Below the pieces are notes generated by a model. The model was not told the DNA's origin. It searched no databases and saw only the letters and a program-made list of their open reading frames with translations. From Minisyncoccota bacterium (GTDB lineage: Bacteria; Patescibacteriota; Minisyncoccia; Phycocordibacterales; GCA-2747955), in NCBI GenBank assembly GCA_020629435.1, contig JAHDDI010000003.1:24075-56771 (forward strand): a stretch of DNA of 32,697 bases. The letters are read 5' to 3'. This document shows positions 5,858 to 31,101 of this stretch, in pieces; position 1 is the stretch's first letter; each line of letters starts with the position of its first letter. A program made the translations under genes and the position numbers.

Positions 5858-5931
5858 GCGAGTGTAGCTCAGTTGGTTAGAGCGCATCACTGATAATGAT
5901 GAGGTCCCAGGTTCGAATCCTGGCATTCGCA
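5858..5931 (+). tRNA. tRNA-Ile(GAT), CCA not encoded
   Basis: Cloverleaf: acceptor GCGAGTG/CATTCGC, D arm GCTC/GAGC, anticodon arm CATCA-CTGATAA-TGATG, T arm CCAGG-TTCGAAT-CCTGG, discriminator A. Confidence 0.97.
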
Positions 5932-6153: not shown

Positions 6154-6264
6154 CGCACCTCCCCTATCTGTACGTCACCTTGGAACACTCGACTATCTAC
6201 TTCTTCCAAACTCGCCGGATGGTGCACGAGCATGCCCTTTGAAAATAACTAAACAGAAATAGAA

Positions 6265-6298
6265 AATATTAAAATCCGCATATGCGGATTGTAATATT
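6265..6298 (-). terminator. Terminator of rpsI
   Basis: Palindrome aatccgca-ta-tgcggatt directly after the rpsI stop, with a T-rich tail on the minus strand. Confidence 0.65.
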
Positions 6299-6300
6299 TA

Positions 6301-6783
6301 TTATCGTTTTACCCATGTAGGTGCCTTTCGAGCCTTTCGTAGACCAAACTTCTTTCGTTCTACTGAACGCGGATCACGTTTCAGGAATCCAGCGTGTTTC
6401 ATAGTTCCACGTAACTCTTCGTTGATTTCAACAAGTGCACGAGCAACCCCCAATCGAACTGCCTCTGCTTGTGCGTTTTGACCACTTCCTTTTGCCAACA
6501 CAGTCACTTGATATGTTTGCCCTACCTCAGGTGTAACCAATGATGCCATAGCAATACCGGTCAAACGTTCAGTTTTAAAATATTCTTTTACATCAATCCC
6601 GTTGACTGTCATAGAATTTGACTTAGCTTCATACAGACGCACTCGTACTGTTGCTGTCTTTCGACGTCCAACTGTTTCAGTATATTTACCTTTTGGTGCC
6701 TGCCCTCGCATTATTTCTGCAATTTTTCGCAGTACTGTCTTTTTGTTACGTTTTGTAACATTTCGATTTTTTACGTCAGCCAT
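6301..6783 (-). CDS. rpsI: 30S ribosomal protein S9, with a basic N-terminal extension
   Basis: GRRKTATVRV, QAEAVRLGVARAL and RDPRSVERKKFGLRKARKAP. Confidence 0.96.
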   Translation of the reverse strand: MADVKNRNVTKRNKKTVLRKIAEIMRGQAPKGKYTETVGRRKTATVRVRLYEAKSNSMTVNGIDVKEYFKTERLTGIAMASLVTPEVGQTYQVTVLAKGSGQNAQAEAVRLGVARALVEINEELRGTMKHAGFLKRDPRSVERKKFGLRKARKAPTWVKR

Positions 6784-7575: not shown

Positions 7576-8265
7576 TTAGTCTTTACTTCCTGCCATTGCA
7601 GTTAATTGTTCTAGCATAATTTGTACTGACTGATCCATAACTTCTGTTGGTGTCAGTGTTCCGTCTGTTTCCACAGACATAATTACACGGTTGTAGTCTG
7701 TTCTATCTCCTACACGCATGTTTTCTACTTCATACGTTGCTCGCCGAATTGGTGTAAAAGAAGTATCCATCACCATTGTCCCGACAGGTAGTTTACCTTC
7801 CTGTAAGTCTTCTTTTGCAACATATCCAATTCCTTTTCGAACCTTGAATGTCATTGTAAATGATGCTTTTTTGTCAGAGACATTCATCAATAATGCATCT
7901 TCGTTCATAATTGACACTTCTGTTGGCGCATCAATTTGTTTTGCTGTGTATACTCCGTCACCTTTTACAACTAATGTACATTCTACTTCTTCTGCACCTT
8001 CTAGGCGGAACACTACACGTTTCAAATTCATAAGAATTGTAATCACGTCTTCTTTCACGCCTTCGATAGTAGAAAATTCATGATCAACTCCGTCAATTTT
8101 TACATGAACAACTCCGACTCCTGGAATTGAAGAGAGGATGATTCGTCGTAGTGAATTACCAAATGTGTGTCCGTATCCCGGGTACAAGTTATCAATTTTA
8201 AATGATGCCTTGAATCCGTCTTCAGATACTTGTTCTGGTTTACTAGGTAGTGTGATGTGTGTCAT
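7576..8265 (-). CDS. rpoA: RNA polymerase subunit alpha, N-terminal domain only (229 aa)
   Basis: GYGHTFGNSLRRIILSSIPG, HEFSTIEGVKEDV, FTPIRR..Y.VENMRVG and ETDGT; located between rpsD and rplQ. Confidence 0.95.
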   Translation of the reverse strand: MTHITLPSKPEQVSEDGFKASFKIDNLYPGYGHTFGNSLRRIILSSIPGVGVVHVKIDGVDHEFSTIEGVKEDVITILMNLKRVVFRLEGAEEVECTLVVKGDGVYTAKQIDAPTEVSIMNEDALLMNVSDKKASFTMTFKVRKGIGYVAKEDLQEGKLPVGTMVMDTSFTPIRRATYEVENMRVGDRTDYNRVIMSVETDGTLTPTEVMDQSVQIMLEQLTAMAGSKD

Positions 8266-8306
8266 ATGAATAGTTATATTAACGTTGGCTTTTAAGTCTT
8301 TCCTGT

Positions 8307-8912
8307 TTAACGAGTGTAGTACTCAATAATTCGTTTGAGATCAAAATCATAGATAGTTGTCTCAGGTAGTGATGTAATAGATGCGGTCAGGTTTTTTAAA
8401 TCAAGATTCATCCAAGCGGGTGCTTTGTAATCTTTCTTCTTTGCAGCCAAACCATCAAATAGTACACTTCCCTGTGATCCTTCTCGTACAGTAATGATAT
8501 CTCCTTCTTTTACAGCAATAGACGGAACTGTTACCTTTCGTCCGTTATACATAATGTGTCCATGAGAAACCATTTGTCGTGCCATTCGTCGAGTATCTGC
8601 CAGTCCTGCTCGGTATACTACTGAATCAAGTCGTCGTTCCAATAGTTGATACAGAGATGCGTTTGTATCAGCTTTCACTGAAAGCGCTTGTTTAACGTAA
8701 TTCGCTAGGTGCTTTTCTTTTAAACCATAAGTCAGACGTAGTTTTTGTTTCTCCAATAACTGTTTAGAGTACTCAGAACCTTGTCGTGGTCGACGAGATC
8801 CTGGCCCTGTTTTACGATTTTGTTGTCGCAATGCAAACTTTTGTGTTTGTGTTTTTTCAAAGATTGCTCCGAGTCTTCGTGCAATTTTGTATTTTGGTCC
8901 AATTTTCAACAT
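8307..8912 (-). CDS. rpsD: 30S ribosomal protein S4
   Basis: GPKYKIARRLG, SEYSKQLLEKQK, LERRLDSVVYR, ARQMVSHGH and IIEYY.R. Confidence 0.97.
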   Translation of the reverse strand: MLKIGPKYKIARRLGAIFEKTQTQKFALRQQNRKTGPGSRRPRQGSEYSKQLLEKQKLRLTYGLKEKHLANYVKQALSVKADTNASLYQLLERRLDSVVYRAGLADTRRMARQMVSHGHIMYNGRKVTVPSIAVKEGDIITVREGSQGSVLFDGLAAKKKDYKAPAWMNLDLKNLTASITSLPETTIYDFDLKRIIEYYTR

Positions 8913-23270: not shown

Positions 23271-24552
23271 CAAGTTCAGCGTTAGAGACAGAAATCGCTT
23301 GGTCAATTGACCTCTGTCCACTAGTAATATATTCAATCATACGTGAAAAAATTCCATTCGTCGATTGTTCATTGGGGTCAATGAATGTTCGAGCATAAAT
23401 TGCCTCGGTCTTTAACACGTCTTGATACACCTCTTCTGAAACTGTGTTGACCAAGTCTCGTCGTACTGGTGCCAAATTTGATAGATCTAAAAATAAATTT
23501 GCCCCCAATTGGCTGGTCATGTTGGTCGCAGCAGTAAATGCACCACCAATGTTATCTGATGCACGTGGAATCATAAACCCATGCAGTCGTGCATGAACTG
23601 ACTTACGTCGAGACACGTCTTCATCAACAGCCGGAATTTCTGCAATAGCAAAGTTTAAATTTGGATTTTTCAGACGTAGTCCAGCAATATCTGAAGCGGG
23701 TGCAAAATAGACGGCTAATTTACCCGCCAGGAACTGCTCTTCTGCTGATAGCAGTGATCTGTTCCAAGAATATACCCCCTTGGATGCATCCGAAAATTCT
23801 GTATAAAACCGCAACACAGGCAGTGCGGATTCCACGGTGTCGTTTCCTTTTAATATGGCGTACATGTTTCCGTCTTGTGCTTGATACGTTATTGGGTTTC
23901 CAATTTGGAACAACAACGTTGCTAATATTTCTCGATAGTAATTAACATTCCGAGTCTCCCCAAATGCAATTGTTGACTGCAAAACATTTAGTGATTCATC
24001 AACAATGCTCAGCTCTGGTGCTAGTTCAAAAAAATCAGGCCATGACTTGGGTGGTTGTGCTAAACCAGCCGATGCAAACAAATCTCGATTCCAGTACATA
24101 ACCAGTGGATCAGATGCCAATGGTAATGCAACAATTCCACCATCACGAAAATACACTTCTGCTAATTCAACAAAATTTTCTTGAAATATACGCTTAGAGT
24201 AGCTTTCTGATGTTAGCGTGTATGTTTTATTTAAATATCGACTCATTTGTGTTTCATCAATAAACAACAAATCTGGTGACCGTCCAGATGCAAGTGCCTC
24301 TAGGACTTCTTCATCAAACTGACTTTCAGGGAAATAAGTATATTTTACCTTGTCGAATCCTTCAAAATTATTTTGCATCAACGATAAGTACTGTTTAAAT
24401 TGTTTTGAATCATATGATCCCCATATTTCCACAGACCCAATTTGTGGACCGGAATCTTTGGCAGAAAAGGTAGCAAAGGATATCACACCCCCTATAATCA
24501 ATAGAGCAAATATTCCCATCAATGCCAACCTGAAAAGTGATTTGTCTTGCAT
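23251..24552 (-). CDS. Extracellular solute-binding protein (sugar-binding family 1 type), N-terminally anchored
   Basis: TM anchor, EIWG, LASGRSPDL, ALPL..D.L.MYWNRDLF..AG..PPKSW and F..GK.A; no permease adjacent. Start set at the ATG at 24552. Confidence 0.8.
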   Translation of the reverse strand: MQDKSLFRLALMGIFALLIIGGVISFATFSAKDSGPQIGSVEIWGSYDSKQFKQYLSLMQNNFEGFDKVKYTYFPESQFDEEVLEALASGRSPDLLFIDETQMSRYLNKTYTLTSESYSKRIFQENFVELAEVYFRDGGIVALPLASDPLVMYWNRDLFASAGLAQPPKSWPDFFELAPELSIVDESLNVLQSTIAFGETRNVNYYREILATLLFQIGNPITYQAQDGNMYAILKGNDTVESALPVLRFYTEFSDASKGVYSWNRSLLSAEEQFLAGKLAVYFAPASDIAGLRLKNPNLNFAIAEIPAVDEDVSRRKSVHARLHGFMIPRASDNIGGAFTAATNMTSQLGANLFLDLSNLAPVRRDLVNTVSEEVYQDVLKTEAIYARTFIDPNEQSTNGIFSRMIEYITSGQRSIDQAISVSNAELDELLQN

Positions 24553-24553
24553 A

Positions 24554-25111
24554 TTAATTACTATTATTTGATATATTATTTGCCTGTCGAGCAATTACTC
24601 CGTAGTGATGGTCTCCAGCGCTAAATTCTTTTTCCAAAACAAACCCACTACTTTGCAAAAGCTCTGTTGCAGCTGATTGGTCACAAATTAACGCACTGTC
24701 TGGACCCAAACCATTGTGGCTATCAGTCCAGTCGATGACAATTAGTCGTCCATTTGGTCGCATTATTCGGGACGCTTCGGTGATTGCAGATGCTTTGTCT
24801 TCTAACTGGAACAGTGTGTTACATAATAAAACTGAATCAGCTACATTATCCTGTAATTTAGTTCCACGAACAATTTCGATATCTGCATGGATAATCTCAA
24901 TATTTGAAATCCCCTGCTCTTGTGATTCGGTCGCAATTCGTTCTAACAGTTCGTGCTGTACATCAACCGCATATACTCGCCCCTCTGGACCAATTAGTTG
25001 TGCAGCAGCCCGGGCATAATGCCCACTTCCAGAACCCAAGTCAACAACAACTGACCCGGCTCCCATTCCAATATTGTTTAAGATTTTTTGTGGTTCAGAA
25101 AAATTATTCAT
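24554..25111 (-). CDS. Class I SAM-dependent methyltransferase
   Basis: VVDLGSGSG, VYAVDVQ and R.MRPNGRL.VIDW. Confidence 0.88.
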   Translation of the reverse strand: MNNFSEPQKILNNIGMGAGSVVVDLGSGSGHYARAAAQLIGPEGRVYAVDVQHELLERIATESQEQGISNIEIIHADIEIVRGTKLQDNVADSVLLCNTLFQLEDKASAITEASRIMRPNGRLIVIDWTDSHNGLGPDSALICDQSAATELLQSSGFVLEKEFSAGDHHYGVIARQANNISNNSN

Positions 25112-25175
25112 ACCATCTATTATATGTCTAAATTATGTATCAACAAACAACACATGTTAACAGATAGGCCAGGGT

Positions 25176-25766
25176 TTATTTTTGTTTACTAACTGCACTG
25201 GTGTATCCCTCGGCTATGATGCGTTGGATATACGTATCTGATCTGTCCGCAATATCCGCCAATTGCCCTGTATATTTTCGGGACATTTTTCTTTTGACCA
25301 AATAATTCTGTACTGCATTATTTCCTTTTGGTTTTCGAGGATTACCAAACCAGTCCGTAGGGCAAACACCTATGCGTATACGTATAAAATTTCGGCCATT
25401 TAGTACCTCTTCAATGCTTTTTATGCCATTATGCCCCCCACTTCCTCGATTTCGAGCAATTTTAACGACACCAAAGGGTAAATCAATGTCATCATACACA
25501 ACAATAACCTTGTCTATGTCGATATCATTAATATCTTTGAGTGATTTTCCTGACTCGTTCATAAATGTTTGTGGCTTAATCAGTGTTACACCGCATTCAC
25601 CAATAACACCTTGTGAAATATCTGCCTTACGCATACGGTCAAAACTAAAATCATCAAAATCAATATTATGTTTTTTTTGCAACAAGTCTAAAATCATCCA
25701 TCCAATGTTATGTGGTGTATCCTGATACTGCTCTCCTGGATTACCTAATCCAACTATATAAAACAT
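25176..25766 (-). CDS. pth: Peptidyl-tRNA hydrolase
   Basis: IVGLGNPG..Y..T.HNIG, KPQTFMNESG, DDIDLP, GGHNGIKSI and RIRIGV. Confidence 0.95.
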   Translation of the reverse strand: MFYIVGLGNPGEQYQDTPHNIGWMILDLLQKKHNIDFDDFSFDRMRKADISQGVIGECGVTLIKPQTFMNESGKSLKDINDIDIDKVIVVYDDIDLPFGVVKIARNRGSGGHNGIKSIEEVLNGRNFIRIRIGVCPTDWFGNPRKPKGNNAVQNYLVKRKMSRKYTGQLADIADRSDTYIQRIIAEGYTSAVSKQK

Positions 25767-25886
25767 CTTGCTATTGTATCATCTTACTGTGAGCCCCAAA
25801 ATCATCAATTTCTGAATCATTTATATATTTTTGTGAATTCTCCTTAATGCCGAATCCTTGCTCTTGCTCGTATAATTGCCTTTTTC

Positions 25887-25895
25887 TGGTATAAT
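25887..25895 (+). promoter_or_regulatory. Extended -10 promoter (TGgTATAAT), 7 nt before the lepB ATG at 25903
   Basis: Perfect TGnTATAAT. Confidence 0.65.
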
Positions 25896-25902
25896 CATGC
25901 CG

Positions 25903-26457
25903 ATGAAATCTGAATCAAATAAATCGTGGATCAGAGAATTAACAGAATTCTTTATCTTGTTGTTCGTAATTATTATCCCCTTTAGAATATATGTCGCTGA
26001 ACCGTATATAGTTTCTGGTATTTCCATGTCAGAAACCTATGAAACTGGACATTATTTGATAATAAACAAATTCTGGCACAAACTGTCAGATATTGATCGT
26101 GGCGATGTTTTAGTGTTTCGATCTCCAAATGATGATAATAAATTTTATATTAAAAGAGTAATCGGATTACCCGGAGAAACTGTTTCGATATCAAACACTG
26201 TCGTAACTATTAGTCCCGAAGATGGCTCAGACCCCTTCGTTCTCGAAGAACCCTACATTAAAAACCCTACATATGCAGAGGTGAGCCTGACATTATCAGA
26301 ACAAGAGTATTTTATGATGGGTGACAACAGGGAAAATAGTTACGATTCGCGCGCGTGGGGTCCACTGAACGAAACTGCTATTAGAGGTGAACCCGTCATG
26401 CGACTATTCCCTTTTACAGACATTAATCTTTTACCAGGTAGATACCAACAATACTAA
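25903..26457 (+). CDS. lepB: Signal peptidase I
   Basis: TM anchor, VSGISM (catalytic Ser), RGDVLVF, YIKRVIGLPGE (catalytic Lys) and MGDNRENSYDSR.WG. Confidence 0.93.
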   Translation: MKSESNKSWIRELTEFFILLFVIIIPFRIYVAEPYIVSGISMSETYETGHYLIINKFWHKLSDIDRGDVLVFRSPNDDNKFYIKRVIGLPGETVSISNTVVTISPEDGSDPFVLEEPYIKNPTYAEVSLTLSEQEYFMMGDNRENSYDSRAWGPLNETAIRGEPVMRLFPFTDINLLPGRYQQY

Positions 26458-26469
26458 TACACATTTTTT

Positions 26470-27603
26470 ATGGCTACAAAAAAACAACAAACTCCAAAAC
26501 CAAAAAATAACGCTGAGCATACTGCGTTTCACTATGGTTTTGATTTAGTAGAAATTAAAGAAACAGCTGGTGCAAACACTAAAGGGCAACGTGCCGAAGA
26601 AGAAAAAGTAAAGGTGCTAAAATACTACAGCAGTGACAACGACCTGAAACGTGAAATACCCAAATCAATGATGTTTTACAATAAACCATTGATAAAAGAA
26701 AAAGATGGAAAAAAATCAGCCAATACTATTGGGCTTGATTTAATTGGGGTGGACAATGCTTTGGCCGAAGCATTAGTTATTCAGACTGCACTTTCTATTT
26801 TAAAAGACGAAGGATACAAAGATTTATCTATTGAAATTAATTCAATCGGAGACAAAGATTCTGTTAAGCGATTTGAAAAAGAACTAGTTGCGTATTACAA
26901 AACACGGACGGATGACTTGAAATCTATTGAAAAGAAAAAAATTAATGCTGATCATGTTATGGAGTTGTTTACTTCTGACAAAGATTATATGCAAGAAATA
27001 AATGCAGACGCACCAAAACCTATCTACTTCCTGTCTGATAGCAGCTCTGCTCACTTTAAAGAAGTATTAGAATTTTTAGAAGAAATCAATACTCCATACA
27101 ATATTTCAGATTCATTGATTGGTGATAAAAATTATTTCTCAAAAGTTATCTTTGTGATTAAGGGAAGAATCGGTAAAGAAAAAGAATCAAAAGTACTAGC
27201 CCGCGGTGGACGGTACGACGAATTAGCCGGAGAAGTAACACGTAAAAGAAAGATTGCTGCAGTTGGATTATCAATGGACTTTAAAGCAAAAACTAAAAAA
27301 CCAACCACTAAAGCAACAGATGTTAGCATTCATTTAATTAAGATTGGGTTTAATGCAAAACTAAAATCACTAGAAATTATGGAGGCAATGAAATCTGTTG
27401 GTGCTCCACTCAACCATAGCCTGGACGAGAAAAAGATATCTCACCAAATTGAACATGCCGTAGAAAACGACGCATCATACGCACTAATTGTGGGCCAAAG
27501 AGAAGCAAACAACGGAAAAGTTCTGGTTCGAAACATGGAAACCAGCGCACAAGATGAGATAAAAATAGAGGACCTGGCAAAATACATGAAAAAATTAATG
27601 TAA
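26470..27603 (+). CDS. Histidyl-tRNA synthetase-like protein with a degenerate catalytic core and an intact anticodon-binding domain
   Basis: Recognisable YGF, INSIG, HF..V..L, GGRYD.L, AVG.S and ALIVG..E..V.VRNM..Q; class II motif 2 and RGLDYY are not recognisable. Confidence 0.75.
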   Translation: MATKKQQTPKPKNNAEHTAFHYGFDLVEIKETAGANTKGQRAEEEKVKVLKYYSSDNDLKREIPKSMMFYNKPLIKEKDGKKSANTIGLDLIGVDNALAEALVIQTALSILKDEGYKDLSIEINSIGDKDSVKRFEKELVAYYKTRTDDLKSIEKKKINADHVMELFTSDKDYMQEINADAPKPIYFLSDSSSAHFKEVLEFLEEINTPYNISDSLIGDKNYFSKVIFVIKGRIGKEKESKVLARGGRYDELAGEVTRKRKIAAVGLSMDFKAKTKKPTTKATDVSIHLIKIGFNAKLKSLEIMEAMKSVGAPLNHSLDEKKISHQIEHAVENDASYALIVGQREANNGKVLVRNMETSAQDEIKIEDLAKYMKKLM

Positions 27604-27623
27604 GAATATTATTTACAACAACA

Positions 27624-27649
27624 AAAACCGCGCAATGCGGTTTTGTTTT
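27624..27649 (+). terminator. Intrinsic terminator after the HisRS-like gene
   Basis: aaaaccgc-gcaat-gcggttttgtttt. Confidence 0.7.
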
Positions 27650-27749
27650 GGCTATGTTTTTGGGCATCTCAATCCTACACAAGCAACTTATTATATTATT
27701 TGCTTCGGTTTTTTTATTATTAACTTTTTGGAATATATATCCATGTATC

Positions 27750-28037
27750 CTCACTCTGTTCTATACAAAATAGCTTTTTTCAGTATCTTTTTTTGTCCGT
27801 TATTCAAACACTACTAGCTTCGACCAAACTACCTGTTGGTCTGCAGATAGTGTTTGGAATAAAGGACGGAGGTGTTATTCAGTTCCGATTATGTAATTTA
27901 GCTTGAGGTTCAAGTACAATTTTAATACTGTATTAATTCCACCGTTACAACTTTTCTTGAACCCCTGCAGACGAGACGATTAGATGGTTTTTTCCTTCAG
28001 GCAGTCTCGTCGAAGCCAGTTCAAAAAAAGTTAGTAA
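27750..28037. repeat. Structured non-coding element, copy 1 (oppositely oriented modules at 27800-27862 and 27945-28037)
   Basis: Aligns in blocks with the reverse complement of 30118-30474, with compensatory stem changes. Confidence 0.8.
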
Positions 28038-28179
28038 TAAAAAAAATTCCAAAGCAGATACTAAAAATTTTAAACAATCAAAGTGATGATGCACAAGCGC
28101 AAATGTACATATCCAAAGACTATGTCTTTACAAAACCACGCAAGCTGCAAACAAGAACCTACTTAGTCGAAAATAGACT

Positions 28180-29328
28180 TTATGCAGAAAATTTTCGAAC
28201 AGCCGAGAACAGCTTTCGGGTTAGATTTCGTAGTAGACCCCTATTTTTTGATCGCTCTTGATCCATTGCTTGAATAGCGACCCCGTAAACACTTGCCCAC
28301 CCCAGTTCACGCTCATCTGCATCTTGCCTTTTGAATGCACGAATGAGTGCCTTTCTGGTAGGTATTTTTAACACATCACGCGCCAACATATCAATATCTT
28401 GTAACATTGACCCTGCACCGCACAAAACAGCTCCTCCTGGCAAATTACCACTCTTTTCGATTGATTTTAAGTCAGCGTTTACCTTCTTAAAAATATCGAT
28501 TGTTGCTTTTTTAATTGTTGCGTGAACTTTCTCCGAACTAATTGATGCGGCAATTGGCCCTCCTAATTTAATTATTTCTGCGTCAGACACAGATATTTGA
28601 TATTCCAATGCTATGGCCTGAGTAATTGAATCACTTCCTTGTTCCAAATATCCTACATGAATTGGAGCATCGTGCTCATAAACAACATATGATGTTGCGT
28701 CGCTTCCAATATCAATCAACACACATCCTACCTTTCTATCTATGGTAGACAGCGACACTATACTAGCGCCAATAATAGCTGGTAAAAAATCTTCGGTGTC
28801 TACTTCAATCTGGTCCAGTACGTCTTCTGCTGCATCGATATTCTGACTAGCATAATTAAATAGCATTGCTTCAACATCTAATTTCTTACCCTTCATTCCT
28901 ATTGGTTCTGATACTGTTTCTTGTCCGTCCAGCTTGTAGTGCAAAATAATTGAATCTATATTTCTCTGGTTTGTTGACAGAGTTTTTTTAACTGAACGCC
29001 TGATGGATTGTTCGATATCAAATTCTGTCACAATAGAGTCACCGTGACTGACCGCAACTGGAGAAGACACAATTTTTGTTGCCATGGGTCCACCACCTGC
29101 GGTTACATATATTTCTTTTATCTGCTGACCAATTTGTTTTTCTGTTAATCGGATTGCTTTTTTGACTGCTACGTACACATCCGATTTATTGGTAATGTAT
29201 CCATTACGCACCCCTGCAGATTGTGCACTAGATCGTGCTAATAAAACAATTTTTTCATCACGCAATTGGCCCGCGACAACGCGGATTGTATTACTCCCTA
29301 TATCAATTGCTGCAATAATTTGTGACAT
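28180..29328 (-). CDS. ftsA: Cell division protein FtsA
   Basis: IDIGSNTIR, S.GVRNG.I, LDG..PIGMKG.KL, G..LIDIG and G.VL.GAGS.L. Confidence 0.85.
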   Translation of the reverse strand: MSQIIAAIDIGSNTIRVVAGQLRDEKIVLLARSSAQSAGVRNGYITNKSDVYVAVKKAIRLTEKQIGQQIKEIYVTAGGGPMATKIVSSPVAVSHGDSIVTEFDIEQSIRRSVKKTLSTNQRNIDSIILHYKLDGQETVSEPIGMKGKKLDVEAMLFNYASQNIDAAEDVLDQIEVDTEDFLPAIIGASIVSLSTIDRKVGCVLIDIGSDATSYVVYEHDAPIHVGYLEQGSDSITQAIALEYQISVSDAEIIKLGGPIAASISSEKVHATIKKATIDIFKKVNADLKSIEKSGNLPGGAVLCGAGSMLQDIDMLARDVLKIPTRKALIRAFKRQDADERELGWASVYGVAIQAMDQERSKNRGLLRNLTRKLFSAVRKFSA

Positions 29329-29333
29329 AATAA

Positions 29334-29711
29334 TTAAATACCAAATTGTTTTCTAAATTTGGACTCCAGTCTATCCATTGTAGCACCGTGGTCGTGCCCC
29401 TTCAAATGCACTAATCCGTGGACAAACAAAAATCCTACAAAATTTTCAAAAGTACGGTCAAAATTTTTATATTGTTTTTTACACACCGGCAGACAAATAA
29501 ACATTTCTCCTGTTGTGCCTGACAGTGGAAACGACAATATATTAGTTGCATAATCCTTGCCTCTACTTTCTCTATTTATTTTTCGCATCAAATGTTCTCC
29601 ACAAAAAACCAAAGATAATTCATATTTGTTACCCAACACCGCAGCGGCCATCTCGTTGTAGTTATATTTTTTAGGGAACACTGAACGAGTTGTATTTGAG
29701 ATATCTATCAT
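29334..29711 (-). CDS. ybeY: rRNA maturation endoribonuclease YbeY
   Basis: N..R.KDY.TNILSFP, GE.FI and HGLVHLKGHDH. Confidence 0.9.
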   Translation of the reverse strand: MIDISNTTRSVFPKKYNYNEMAAAVLGNKYELSLVFCGEHLMRKINRESRGKDYATNILSFPLSGTTGEMFICLPVCKKQYKNFDRTFENFVGFLFVHGLVHLKGHDHGATMDRLESKFRKQFGI

Positions 29712-29738
29712 ATCTCTAGTATACGCTAGGAGTGAGAC

Positions 29739-29772
29739 ATAAACAAAAACCCCTTGAGGGGTTTTTGTTTAT
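29739..29772. terminator. Terminator of rpsU
   Basis: Perfect stem ataaacaaaaacccc-ttga-ggggtttttgtttat. Confidence 0.78.
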
Positions 29773-29779
29773 AGTTGTA

Positions 29780-30004
29780 CTATTTAATTTTTCCCATTTT
29801 TCGAAGCATGTCTCGCTCTTCTGTTTTTTGAATCTTACGTAGAGCAATATTTTTTCGTTTTAATGCAGATGGTTTTCGTTGTTCAAATTTCTGAGATTTC
29901 AGTTTGTTAACTACTCCTGCTCCTCGAACTTTTTGAGTAAACCGTTTTAAAGTACCCAAGGTATTTTCTTTTTCTTTTTTTGTGATGTGTGCGTTTAGTG
30001 CCAT
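29780..30004 (-). CDS. rpsU: 30S ribosomal protein S21 (divergent)
   Basis: 74 aa, very basic, with the S21 pattern E..LKRF..KV..AG..F..KPS..RK. Confidence 0.75.
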   Translation of the reverse strand: MALNAHITKKEKENTLGTLKRFTQKVRGAGVVNKLKSQKFEQRKPSALKRKNIALRKIQKTEERDMLRKMGKIK

Positions 30005-30117
30005 AGTGGCCAGTAGAATAACATATTTTTATTACTACGCAATAGCTCAACAATACGTTTTGTGCTGCCTAATACTGTTTATCGTAAACTATCCTACTTC
30101 TTGTCGCGGCATATTTT

Positions 30118-30474
30118 GTTACTAACTTATTTCAAACTTGCTTCGTAGCTACTACCTGTCAGTAAATTCTTGTCCATCGTAGCTACTGCAGGGTTTGAAA
30201 TAAGTTGTGACGGTAGAATTCCTGTACCATTAGATTTTAACTAATCTTGAAATCTAATTACCAGAACAGAAGTAAGCCCTCCCACCCCTTTATTCCAAAC
30301 ACTATCCGCAGACCAAACGAACTGAATAGTTATTTCAACCAGGTAGTTTGGTCGGGCTAGTCTCACGGTTTTACAAACCTAGACTATCATGTATACAAAG
30401 CTGGTAGTGTTTGAATAAAGGCAGAAAAATTGCCGGATTAAAAGTTAGGTATGTTTTAAGTAGAATGGAGTGAG
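30118..30474. repeat. Structured non-coding element, copy 2, inverted relative to copy 1 (modules at 30118-30211 and 30287-30421)
   Basis: Perfect 14-bp stem 30124-30137/30193-30206, inner stem gtagctac/gtagctac, outer stem 30287-30304/30405-30421, and motifs shared with copy 1. Confidence 0.8.
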
Positions 30475-30522
30475 AGTGAACTAGACACATAACCCAAAAC
30501 AATACACCCATAGATTATACTT

Positions 30523-30891
30523 TTATTCAAAAAATGTCGTTTTCATTTTTTGCCAAAATGTCTTTTCTTCTTCATTAATTACAATCTCTTCGTCTTCGTC
30601 ACGTACCAAAACCAACACACGCTCCCCTTCTCTTTTGATTGCATATTTTTCAATCAAAAAATCTTGCACCCCTGTGTCAGTTTCTAATAGTTCATTTCTT
30701 GCCTGAACCTTTTCTAGTCTGGTTTCAATATTTGCCTTGCGCAACTCTAGTTCATGTAACATTGCTTGGGCTTGTTTGTGTGACAAGTAATTTCCCCATG
30801 CCCATCGAGTCACCACAAATGTCACAAAAACAACTACTCCTAAAAATAGATACTGTCTTTTTGATTTGTTTTTATTATTACGAATCGACAT
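30523..30891 (-). CDS. FtsB/DivIC-like septum formation initiator protein
   Basis: Short basic N-terminus, one TM, coiled coil, then E.Y..K.EGE.V. Start set at the ATG at 30891. Confidence 0.65.
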   Translation of the reverse strand: MSIRNNKNKSKRQYLFLGVVVFVTFVVTRWAWGNYLSHKQAQAMLHELELRKANIETRLEKVQARNELLETDTGVQDFLIEKYAIKREGERVLVLVRDEDEEIVINEEEKTFWQKMKTTFFE

Positions 30892-30962
30892 AATGTGATT
30901 ATTATACACCAAACTGCACTAAGCCATTTTGATAAAAATGAATTCTGATTTACAATAGAGAT

Positions 30963-31064
30963 ATGTACGGACCAAAATCAAAAGCAATCAAAATATTCTG
31001 GATCATTATGGGCTCATTTGTCATCCTTTCGATGGCTGCCAGCTCTCTTATTTATATAATCTAG
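30963..31064 (+). CDS. 33-aa single-pass membrane microprotein
   Basis: Not in the ORF track. MYGPKSKAIKIFWIIMGSFVILSMAASSLIYII*; TACAAT 6 nt upstream, and the stop runs into a terminator. Confidence 0.6.
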   Translation: MYGPKSKAIKIFWIIMGSFVILSMAASSLIYII

Positions 31065-31101
31065 TAAAACAAAAACCGCCTAGGCGGTTTTTGTTTTACT
31101 A
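31062..31101. terminator. Bidirectional terminator between the microprotein and lepA
   Basis: Perfect palindrome tagtaaaacaaaaaccgcc-ta-ggcggtttttgttttacta, containing both stop codons. Confidence 0.85.

Follow-up and report, generated by a model that had tools for sequence, protein, structure and literature searches.

An apparently lineage-restricted palindromic repeat at both junctions of an inverted rpsU-ybeY-ftsA block in a Minisyncoccota bacterium

Repetitive extragenic palindromes (REPs), as found in bacterial interspersed mosaic elements (BIMEs) and REPIN doublets, are intergenic imperfect palindromes which occur singly or in inverted pairs and are mobilised by RAYT transposases. Inverted copies of insertion sequences (IS) or of rRNA operons recombine to give inversions, and the attC sites of integrons are imperfect palindromes with fixed unpaired bases, in which structure is conserved over sequence. 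The genomes of very small, host-dependent bacteria are thought to be poor in repeats and mobile elements. The window analysed here, a 32,697-nucleotide stretch of the genome of a Minisyncoccota bacterium (assembly G000, GCA_020629435.1: 698 kb, 26 contigs, 86% complete; contig JAHDDI010000003.1, C6:24075-56771), contains two composite palindromic elements, A (27687..28096, + strand) and B (30056..30499, - strand). The genes between them, rpsU, ybeY and ftsA, are inverted in this genome, with A and B located exactly at the two junctions of the inversion and themselves mutually inverted. In kind, the elements represent a bacterial interspersed palindromic repeat as inversion substrate, working like REP/MITE (miniature inverted-repeat transposable element) sequences without being a proven member of either group. 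They probably derive from a lineage-restricted palindromic repeat which was itself probably once mobile, and whose inverted copies recombined, flipping the rpsU-ybeY-ftsA block.

The order of genes in the window is S26 peptidase (+), histidyl-tRNA synthetase-like (HisRS-like) gene (+), element A, ftsA (-), ybeY (-), rpsU (-), element B, a gene coding for a 129-aa protein (-) and lepA (-). By contrast, the order in G001, a complete genome of the same genus, is pth (+), S26 peptidase (-), HisRS-like gene (-), rpsU (-), ftsA (-), the 129-aa gene (+) and lepA (+), in which the HisRS-like gene and rpsU are only 44 nt apart and ftsA and the 129-aa gene 16 nt apart; neither gap contains a match to R1, a covariance model built from the seven well-kept 3' modules of the repeat family described below. 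The outer neighbours are the same in G001 and the window, and the flip is limited to the segment between A and B. Synteny was assessed in 21 relatives (G001 and the ftsA regions of 20 further genomes), in which the window proteins were placed by tblastn. The HisRS-like gene, rpsU, ybeY and ftsA are all co-directional in 15 relatives, and the same order is observed in G021, where rpsU gave no match, and in G001, where ybeY gave none, so that the co-directional order is found in 17 of the 21 relatives. In G007 a contig end cuts the region, with ybeY and ftsA co-directional, while ftsA occurs in a different context in G003, G006 and G009. The HisRS-like gene is convergent with ftsA in none of the 21 relatives, and the arrangement of the window was seen in none. 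The block is thus flipped relative to every informative relative, bearing out the proposal in the earlier note that the inverted pair could mark inversion breakpoints. In three runs of the source sample (X1-X3), independently assembled contigs span positions 24000-31091 with 0, 3 and 8 differences, and the arrangement is therefore no assembly artefact. As in inversions between IS copies or rRNA operons, two homologous inverted copies exactly bound the inverted segment. In the present case, however, short arms of ~400 bp, now only ~76% identical, enclose a small set of essential genes.

Element A, the extent of which was determined by BLAST homology to two further copies, C and D, comprises two modules arranged head-to-head. 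A left terminal inverted repeat (27691..27729, -), a reverse copy of the module tail, pairs with 28025-28066 over 42 nt (81%; repeat scan, 21-nt arm of 95%). It is followed by a short, decayed 5' module in reverse polarity (27768..27880, -; hairpin core 27795-27866), which scores 30.3 bits with R1 and carries a triad of conserved motifs on the - strand, and by a 3' module (27931..28065, +) with a well-kept, covarying hairpin and tail (R1 138.6 bits; single-stranded DNA fold z -4.03). Element B, delimited by alignment and BLAST homology, contains a well-kept 3' module (30092..30224, -; R1 122.1 bits), now located directly upstream of rpsU, and a 5' module in reverse polarity (30285..30429, +), which is a long form with two inserted hairpins and gave a partial R1 match (30306-30359, +; 21.4 bits). 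The MAFFT alignment of A with the reverse complement of B shows a mean column identity of 76% across 440 aligned columns including the flanks, with the two insertions in B falling within the 5' hairpin. With A as query against the whole assembly, BLAST recovered B at E-values of 1.8e-22 (210 nt, 69%) and 2.8e-5 (78 nt, 73%), and the resemblance is therefore far beyond chance. Inverted arms identified in the repeat scan pair 27836-27865 with 30287-30316 (30 nt, 97%), 27789-27820 with 30398-30429 (32 nt, 84%), 27821-27835 with 30340-30354 (15 nt, 100%) and 27998-28042 with 30114-30158 (45 nt, 78%). The 5' modules share blocks of 15/15, 15/15 and 29/30 nt, while the 3' modules are only 65% identical. 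The blocks listed in the earlier note as shared between 27750-28037 and 30118-30474 all occur at those positions and their collinear alignment holds; the elements themselves are real, but the ~300-360 bp given for them was too short, as homology with the other copies extends A to ~27687-28096 and B to ~30056-30499. Both elements fold far more stably as RNA than their shuffled counterparts in their common sense (z -4.74 for A and -4.29 for B), and the opposite strand of A folds equally well (z -4.97). Only five open reading frames (ORFs) of at least 40 aa occur across A and B, and their lengths of 41-60 aa are as expected for any AT-rich DNA.

A and B belong to a family of seven loci and 11 modules in this genome, comprising seven well-kept modules (R1 117-141 bits) and four reverse-polarity partners, as identified by BLAST, a script and R1. 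Five loci are additional to A and B, so that the genome-wide search for further copies proposed in the earlier note was productive. Copies C (C14 ~8060-8561, +) and D (C2 ~43706-44240, -) are full-length, while copies E (C14:16033-16166, -), F (C18:15949-16084, +) and G (C7:2312-2441, -) are single 3' modules, all five being supported by BLAST and R1. Four of the seven loci (A, B, C and D) are thus head-to-head doublets of 400-480 bp, and three are single modules of 165-190 bp. The upstream block ctcactc..ttcta is the reverse complement of the block at the end of the module tail, from which it follows that the full-length element consists of two complete modules head-to-head around a variable centre of 70-100 nt. 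The layout initially described, of a module, a variable centre and a module of opposite polarity, is accordingly upheld, with R1 matching the decayed 5' modules on the opposite strand at 58.1 (C), 47.5 (D), 30.3 (A) and 21.4 bits (B, partial) and the motif order in agreement. As a palindromic module scores 19-31 bits with R1 on its own reverse strand, and the 5' modules of A and B score no higher, their polarity is deduced from the motifs instead: the succession CTGCAG - stem - CAGGTA - stem - CGAAGC is legible on the opposite strand only. In each doublet one module is well kept and the other decayed; the decayed module has lost length in A and gained inserted hairpins in B and D. The bipolar pair had been suggested to be the unit that spreads. 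This is not supported, as three of the seven loci are single and the members of each pair are unequal (117-141 versus 21-58 bits); since the second module is decayed in each doublet, the basic unit is the single hairpin module.

The copies are 61-78% identical and no near-identical copy was found. The 3' modules of A and B, at 65%, are among the least similar pairs, with higher identities observed for A-D (78%), A-C (76%) and B-F (73%). Terminal inverted repeats are present in D (39 nt, 95%) and A (42 nt, 81%), with none clear in B and C, and conservation continues ~30-50 nt past the right terminal repeat, leaving the element ends fuzzy. All copies are intergenic. The module tail points towards the start of a gene in copies B, E and F and towards a gene 3' end in A, C, D and G, and three modules directly precede rpsU, rpsS and tgt, in the same direction as these genes. 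Both of the 100-N scaffolding gaps in the assembly lie inside elements (C14 ~8166-8265 in copy C and C2 ~43840-43939 in copy D) and are flanked by exact 55-nt duplicates, indicating that the assembly graph branched inside the repeats; these gaps may conceal further copies that were not assembled, or structural variation within the population. A vestige of ~19 nt, located ~115 nt upstream of F, resembles the 5' strand of the A and B 5' modules, and an mscL-like gene beside F (C18:15353-15733) has no counterpart at the orthologous site in G001 (78-nt gap).

The unit of the family is an imperfect hairpin of ~105 nt with an A-rich tail of ~60 nt, and the seven 3' modules align cleanly. The hairpin begins at its base with a lower stem of 19 bp, containing a single bulge. 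Above this are a symmetric internal loop, in which CCCUGCA faces GAAGCCA, an upper stem of 8 bp, the sequence of which differs in nearly every copy with the pairing always kept, and an apical region ending in CAGGUA. A CCGAAA motif is present in the A-rich tail and a GC-richer block occurs ~25 nt further on. Folding of the seven 3' modules with RNAalifold yielded 27 pairs, 13 of which show compensatory double changes, and with the structure held fixed 97.9% of 187 cells are paired. None of 500 shuffles reached the observed covariation, and when the partner was slid by one to three columns as a control, pairing dropped to 25-43%. The hairpin is thus strongly maintained. Pairing is almost purely Watson-Crick, with three G-U and two C-A among the 187 cells, and both strands fold equally well, so that the covariation is compatible with RNA and DNA alike. 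The G-U and C-A counts and the equal folding likewise gave no signal by which a putative RNA could be assigned to a strand. Covariation of this sort can arise through selection on an RNA, through selection on the hairpin for spread in an evolving source lineage, or through arm-to-arm conversion of a DNA palindrome. The unpaired motifs conserved across the modules (CTGCAG ... CAGGTA ... CGAAGC) argue for a sequence-specific recognition of the hairpin. The palindrome CTGCAG was considered as a restriction site, but is unremarkable genome-wide (295 observed versus 323 expected), and promoter and terminator scans of the elements gave nothing above shuffled expectation.

Like REPs, BIMEs and REPINs, the copies are non-coding, intergenic imperfect palindromes, which occur singly or as inverted doublets and form hairpins on either strand. 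The unit of ~105-nt hairpin and ~60-nt tail is, however, three to four times longer than the 20-40-nt REP units, and unlike REPINs the family includes only 11 modules which are 61-78% identical rather than near-identical, with no Y1/RAYT gene found. Among the MITEs and palindromic repeats treated in the review PMC10969869, the Correia, ERIC and Rickettsia palindromic elements (RPEs) are described as AT-rich, intergenic sequences of 100-500 bp that lack an ORF, form stable stem-loops, carry terminal inverted repeats and contribute to genome plasticity. The elements observed here recall these traits, the terminal inverted repeat being that of copy D (39 nt, 95%), and RPEs too occur in a reduced genome (PMC10969869). 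The present family differs from the elements as described there in that no target-site duplication is definable, no parent IS was found and the unpaired loop motifs are conserved, and while RPEs are stated in that review to insert often in genes (PMC10969869), the copies here are all intergenic. Stem-loops with internal loops, from the same broad group of small bacteria, are also described for TIGR arrays and IS110 bridge RNAs in PMC12045711, where TIGR units are given as tandem 8-12-nt repeats with 9-nt spacers beside a Nop-domain gene and bridge RNAs are located beside an IS110 recombinase. Relative to that description both candidates were rejected, as the elements form no tandem array, no IS110 gene was found in the 86%-complete assembly, and it is the loops that are conserved and the stems that vary.

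No Rfam 15 family matched the window at the gathering threshold except a tRNA-Ile (5858-5931), which lies outside the elements and is also the only feature predicted by ARAGORN, and Rfam searches by E-value of all seven loci gave 11-30 bits against cut-offs of 38-100. BLAST in 40 relatives returned only short A-rich matches, R1 found nothing convincing in 11 other genomes of the family including G001 (best E 0.04), and in 150 other genomes of the order no match was obtained at E <= 1e-3. The strict motif had no match in the contigs of species-representative genomes or in viral contigs. A gapped version matched twice in genome contigs, twice in JGI metagenome contigs and not at all in viral contigs, but these four are regarded as chance matches, those in genome contigs scoring 17.6 and 11.4 bits with R1 and those in metagenome contigs having no R1 match at E <= 10. 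Outside this genome, the only other holder of the elements is the metagenome of another study (X4), the contigs of which share ~89-95% identity with the window. To the extent that it could be searched for, the family is private to this species-level lineage. It is new to Rfam and the collections searched, while the phenomenon itself is known; keyword searches of the literature on Patescibacteria and the candidate phyla radiation retrieved no relevant account of such repeats.

Several features are consistent with past mobility. The family is multi-copy, non-coding and intergenic, two copies have terminal inverted repeats, and it is limited to one lineage. The elements are absent from all of the compared G001 sites (gaps of 44, 16, 488, 315 and 78 nt), although the G001 proteins are only 60-70% identical, and at three collinear sites the spacers measure 1782, 1355 and 844 nt in G000 versus 488, 315 and 78 nt in G001. 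Searches for Y1_Tnp (Y1/RAYT), IS110, TnpB, RVT_1, resolvase, rve and DDE_Tnp_1 gave no match in the 86%-complete assembly, other transposase families not having been searched. The RAYT profile PF01797, which was positive in six of 14 known genomes used as controls, likewise had none. The earlier note found no transposase, recombinase or reverse transcriptase in the window and proposed a genome search for HUH/Y1, IS110 and reverse transcriptase genes, of which the 86%-complete assembly yielded none. A single tyrosine recombinase is encoded, and because it has a syntenic orthologue (66.6%) in the element-free G001, it looks like a housekeeping Xer protein. Target-site duplications are not definable, given the indistinct limits of the elements and a distance to the nearest genome lacking them that is too large for spacers to be aligned. 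The likeness to non-autonomous MITE or REPIN elements suggested in the earlier note is therefore sustained in part: additional copies, element-free junctions in G001 and restriction to one lineage agree with it, but no transposase was found, no target-site duplication is definable and no copy is recent. As RAYT and transposase searches returned no match and no target duplication could be defined, the family is not filed as a REPIN or a strict MITE.

A second rearrangement involves copy C, across which secE (G001 ~401.0 kb) now abuts a gene from ~377.5 kb in G001, while contig C18 (17418-19347) joins tgt (377.4 kb) to an rpoB-like gene (401.2 kb). A 23.6-kb block has therefore moved, with C at its new internal junction. 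This block contains ribosomal protein genes through nusG-secE and in G001 is situated between tgt and the rpoB-like gene. The two ends of the block now meet across copy C (C14:8081-8680), as at a circle junction.

The geometry of A and B is the outcome expected of recombination between two inverted repeats. The events may be envisaged as two older insertions, one in the spacer between the HisRS-like gene and rpsU and one after ftsA, both preceding the flip. Recombination between the two doublets, by homologous recombination or replication template switching, would then have flipped the ~2 kb between them and left each element as a reciprocal chimera. The exchange or gene conversion would probably have been centred in or near the 5' module, the site of the longest near-identical blocks between A and B; near-identical blocks in the 5' modules against 65% identity in the 3' modules are as expected if this was the case. 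The family itself would have spread as a non-autonomous element of the MITE/REP kind and would now be old and diverged, with the hairpin kept by selection on source copies or by a host-level role. With only four doublets in the genome, the chance landing of two of them, in inverted orientation, on both junctions of a 2-kb inversion would seem very unlikely.

A number of observations weigh against this reconstruction. A and B are only ~76% alike with a longest identical run of 20 nt, so that the recombination would have to be old, or to have proceeded through sequence which has since diverged. There is no target-site duplication, parent transposase or near-identical copy to show mobility directly, and a purely selfish element leaves the conserved unpaired motifs unexplained. 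G001 is distant, with protein identities of 60-70%, and its 'empty' sites therefore show absence rather than recent insertion. The source-sample contigs show one orientation only, though contigs drop rare variants. In a whole-genome ORF comparison, G000 and G001 differ by 57 breaks among 368 adjacencies, while three of the six scorable adjacencies bearing elements are breaks (A, B and C); the excess is not significant, A and B being one event, and a tie of the elements to rearrangement in general is suggestive only. In X4, a single contig covers 27854-28136, from the centre of A through its 3' module into the flank, and matches the window at 98.6% identity, as compared with 89-95% for seven contigs over genes. 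The difference suggests constraint on the element, an exchange of recent date, or the presence of another strain, closer to this one and at low depth. Another X4 contig extends from the HisRS-like gene to 27794, where it switches to position 30421 on the other strand; the 136 nt beyond this joint lead into a long 5' module of the B type. This would fit an ancestral, un-inverted element and equally an A copy which has kept the long 5' module, and the contig ends too early to tell. Two further X4 joints, 30028->30523 and 27822->27933, were regarded as too weak to be used, there being no more than 28-30 nt on a side.

Recombination between inverted copies of a once-mobile repeat was weighed against several other explanations. 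The modules may instead be structured RNAs with a function in the host, either as cis-acting processing, stability or insulator hairpins in untranslated regions or as small RNA genes, present at paralogous loci which could still serve as recombination substrates. The strong compensatory covariation and conserved unpaired loop motifs, folding z-scores of -4.3 to -5.0, the placement of three modules directly upstream of and in the same direction as rpsU, rpsS and tgt, and the 98.6% identity of the body of A in one contig from a relative of ~92% identity would all accord with such a role. It is nonetheless judged unlikely from the sequence evidence, since no Rfam family is matched at either the gathering or the E-value threshold and nothing was found in G001 or the 150 genomes of the order, which would be unusual for a needed RNA. 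The orientation relative to genes is moreover mixed, with three tails at gene starts and four at gene 3' ends, the near-pure Watson-Crick pairing and equal folding of both strands provide no strand signal, and the second module of each doublet carries the same motifs on the other strand. A distinctly unlikely reading is that the hairpins are folded DNA or RNA sites, read through CTGCAG, CAGGTA and CGAAGC by a candidate host factor to cut, join or flip gene blocks. If true, a minimal bacterium would possess a hairpin-site rearrangement system for which no recombinase partner is known, and the rpsU-ybeY-ftsA flip, the relocated 23.6-kb block with copy C and the strand-switching X4 contig would be outputs of one mechanism.

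The remaining explanations concern the flip itself. The hairpins could be sites for a site-specific recombinase, acting on them folded or as duplex in the manner of attC sites or invertons, so that the block would be reversibly invertible. Structure is kept more than sequence and fixed unpaired bases occur in imperfect palindromes, as in attC, copy C is located at the new junction of the relocated 23.6-kb block, and the X4 contig (relative of ~92% identity) joins 27794 to 30421 on opposite strands as an un-inverted form would. An integron integrase and a cassette array are, however, both lacking, and the sites are dispersed in both orientations; the 86%-complete assembly yielded no resolvase or invertase, and its single tyrosine recombinase, with a syntenic 66.6% orthologue in a genome lacking the elements, looks like a housekeeping Xer. 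Given also that only one orientation occurs in the source-sample contigs, that an A copy with a B-like long 5' module explains the X4 joint equally well, and that the inverted segment consists of essential genes without a promoter switch, recombinase sites appear very improbable. Intramolecular replicative transposition produces inverted copies flanking an inverted segment, and a single step in which the element was copied nearby in inverted orientation, flipping the DNA between, would match the observed outcome. Such an event receives similarly little credence, as A and B are not sister copies (65% between their 3' modules, with A nearer to D and C at 78% and 76% and B nearer to F at 73%) and rve, DDE_Tnp_1 and resolvase had no matches in the 86%-complete assembly. 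Finally, the inversion may have had another cause, the elements having been inserted later at two new, permissive junctions. Elements at the collinear sites D, E and F show that a breakpoint is not required for their presence, but coincidence would need two of only four doublets to fall on both junctions, mutually inverted and with the segments of highest similarity pointing in the same direction, and is regarded as extremely improbable.

Of the genes adjoining the elements, the HisRS-like gene (26470..27603, +; 377 aa; Pfam tRNA-synt_His and HGTP_anticodon) is the left neighbour and is not inverted; its orthologue in G001 (68% identity) adjoins rpsU. Within the inverted block are ftsA (28180..29328, -; Pfam FtsA and SHS2_FTSA), ybeY (29334..29711, -; Pfam YbeY, E 1e-23) and the S21-like gene designated rpsU (29780..30004, -; 74 aa), orthologues of which adjoin the HisRS-like gene in relatives according to tblastn. 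The names FtsA, YbeY and HisRS-like given in the earlier note stand, while the rpsU product reaches Pfam Ribosomal_S21 only at E 0.003, with 17.6 bits where the cut-off is 27, and is taken, from its sequence, to be a divergent S21. The right neighbour, likewise not inverted, is the 129-aa gene (30523..30912, -), which has no Pfam family at E <= 0.001 and whose G001 orthologue adjoins the 3' end of ftsA. In G001 (L037 = G001:C1:34000-46000, 6210-6455) only 246 nt without a ybeY match separate rpsU from ftsA, a position occupied by ybeY in 17 other relatives. A bidirectional terminator-like hairpin was identified by repeat and terminator scans after the HisRS-like gene (27624..27644). It is one of three similar hairpins of this kind, at 27615-27648, 29737-29770 and 31063-31096, located after the HisRS-like gene, rpsU and lepA; these hairpins, of the AAACAAAAACC..GG TTTTTGTTT type, constitute a second small repeat family.

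As a result of the inversion, the S21-like gene, ybeY and ftsA no longer follow the HisRS-like gene, which usually precedes them on the same strand, and a different gene is now located upstream. A private, structured repeat family has thereby been caught at both ends of a rearrangement that breaks a gene order conserved across the order. The conserved loop motifs and the unusually good maintenance of the hairpin leave room for a function, and the covariance model R1 provides a means to track the family in further genomes of the genus. The locus represents a concrete, datable example of gene-order change in the genomes of small, host-dependent bacteria.

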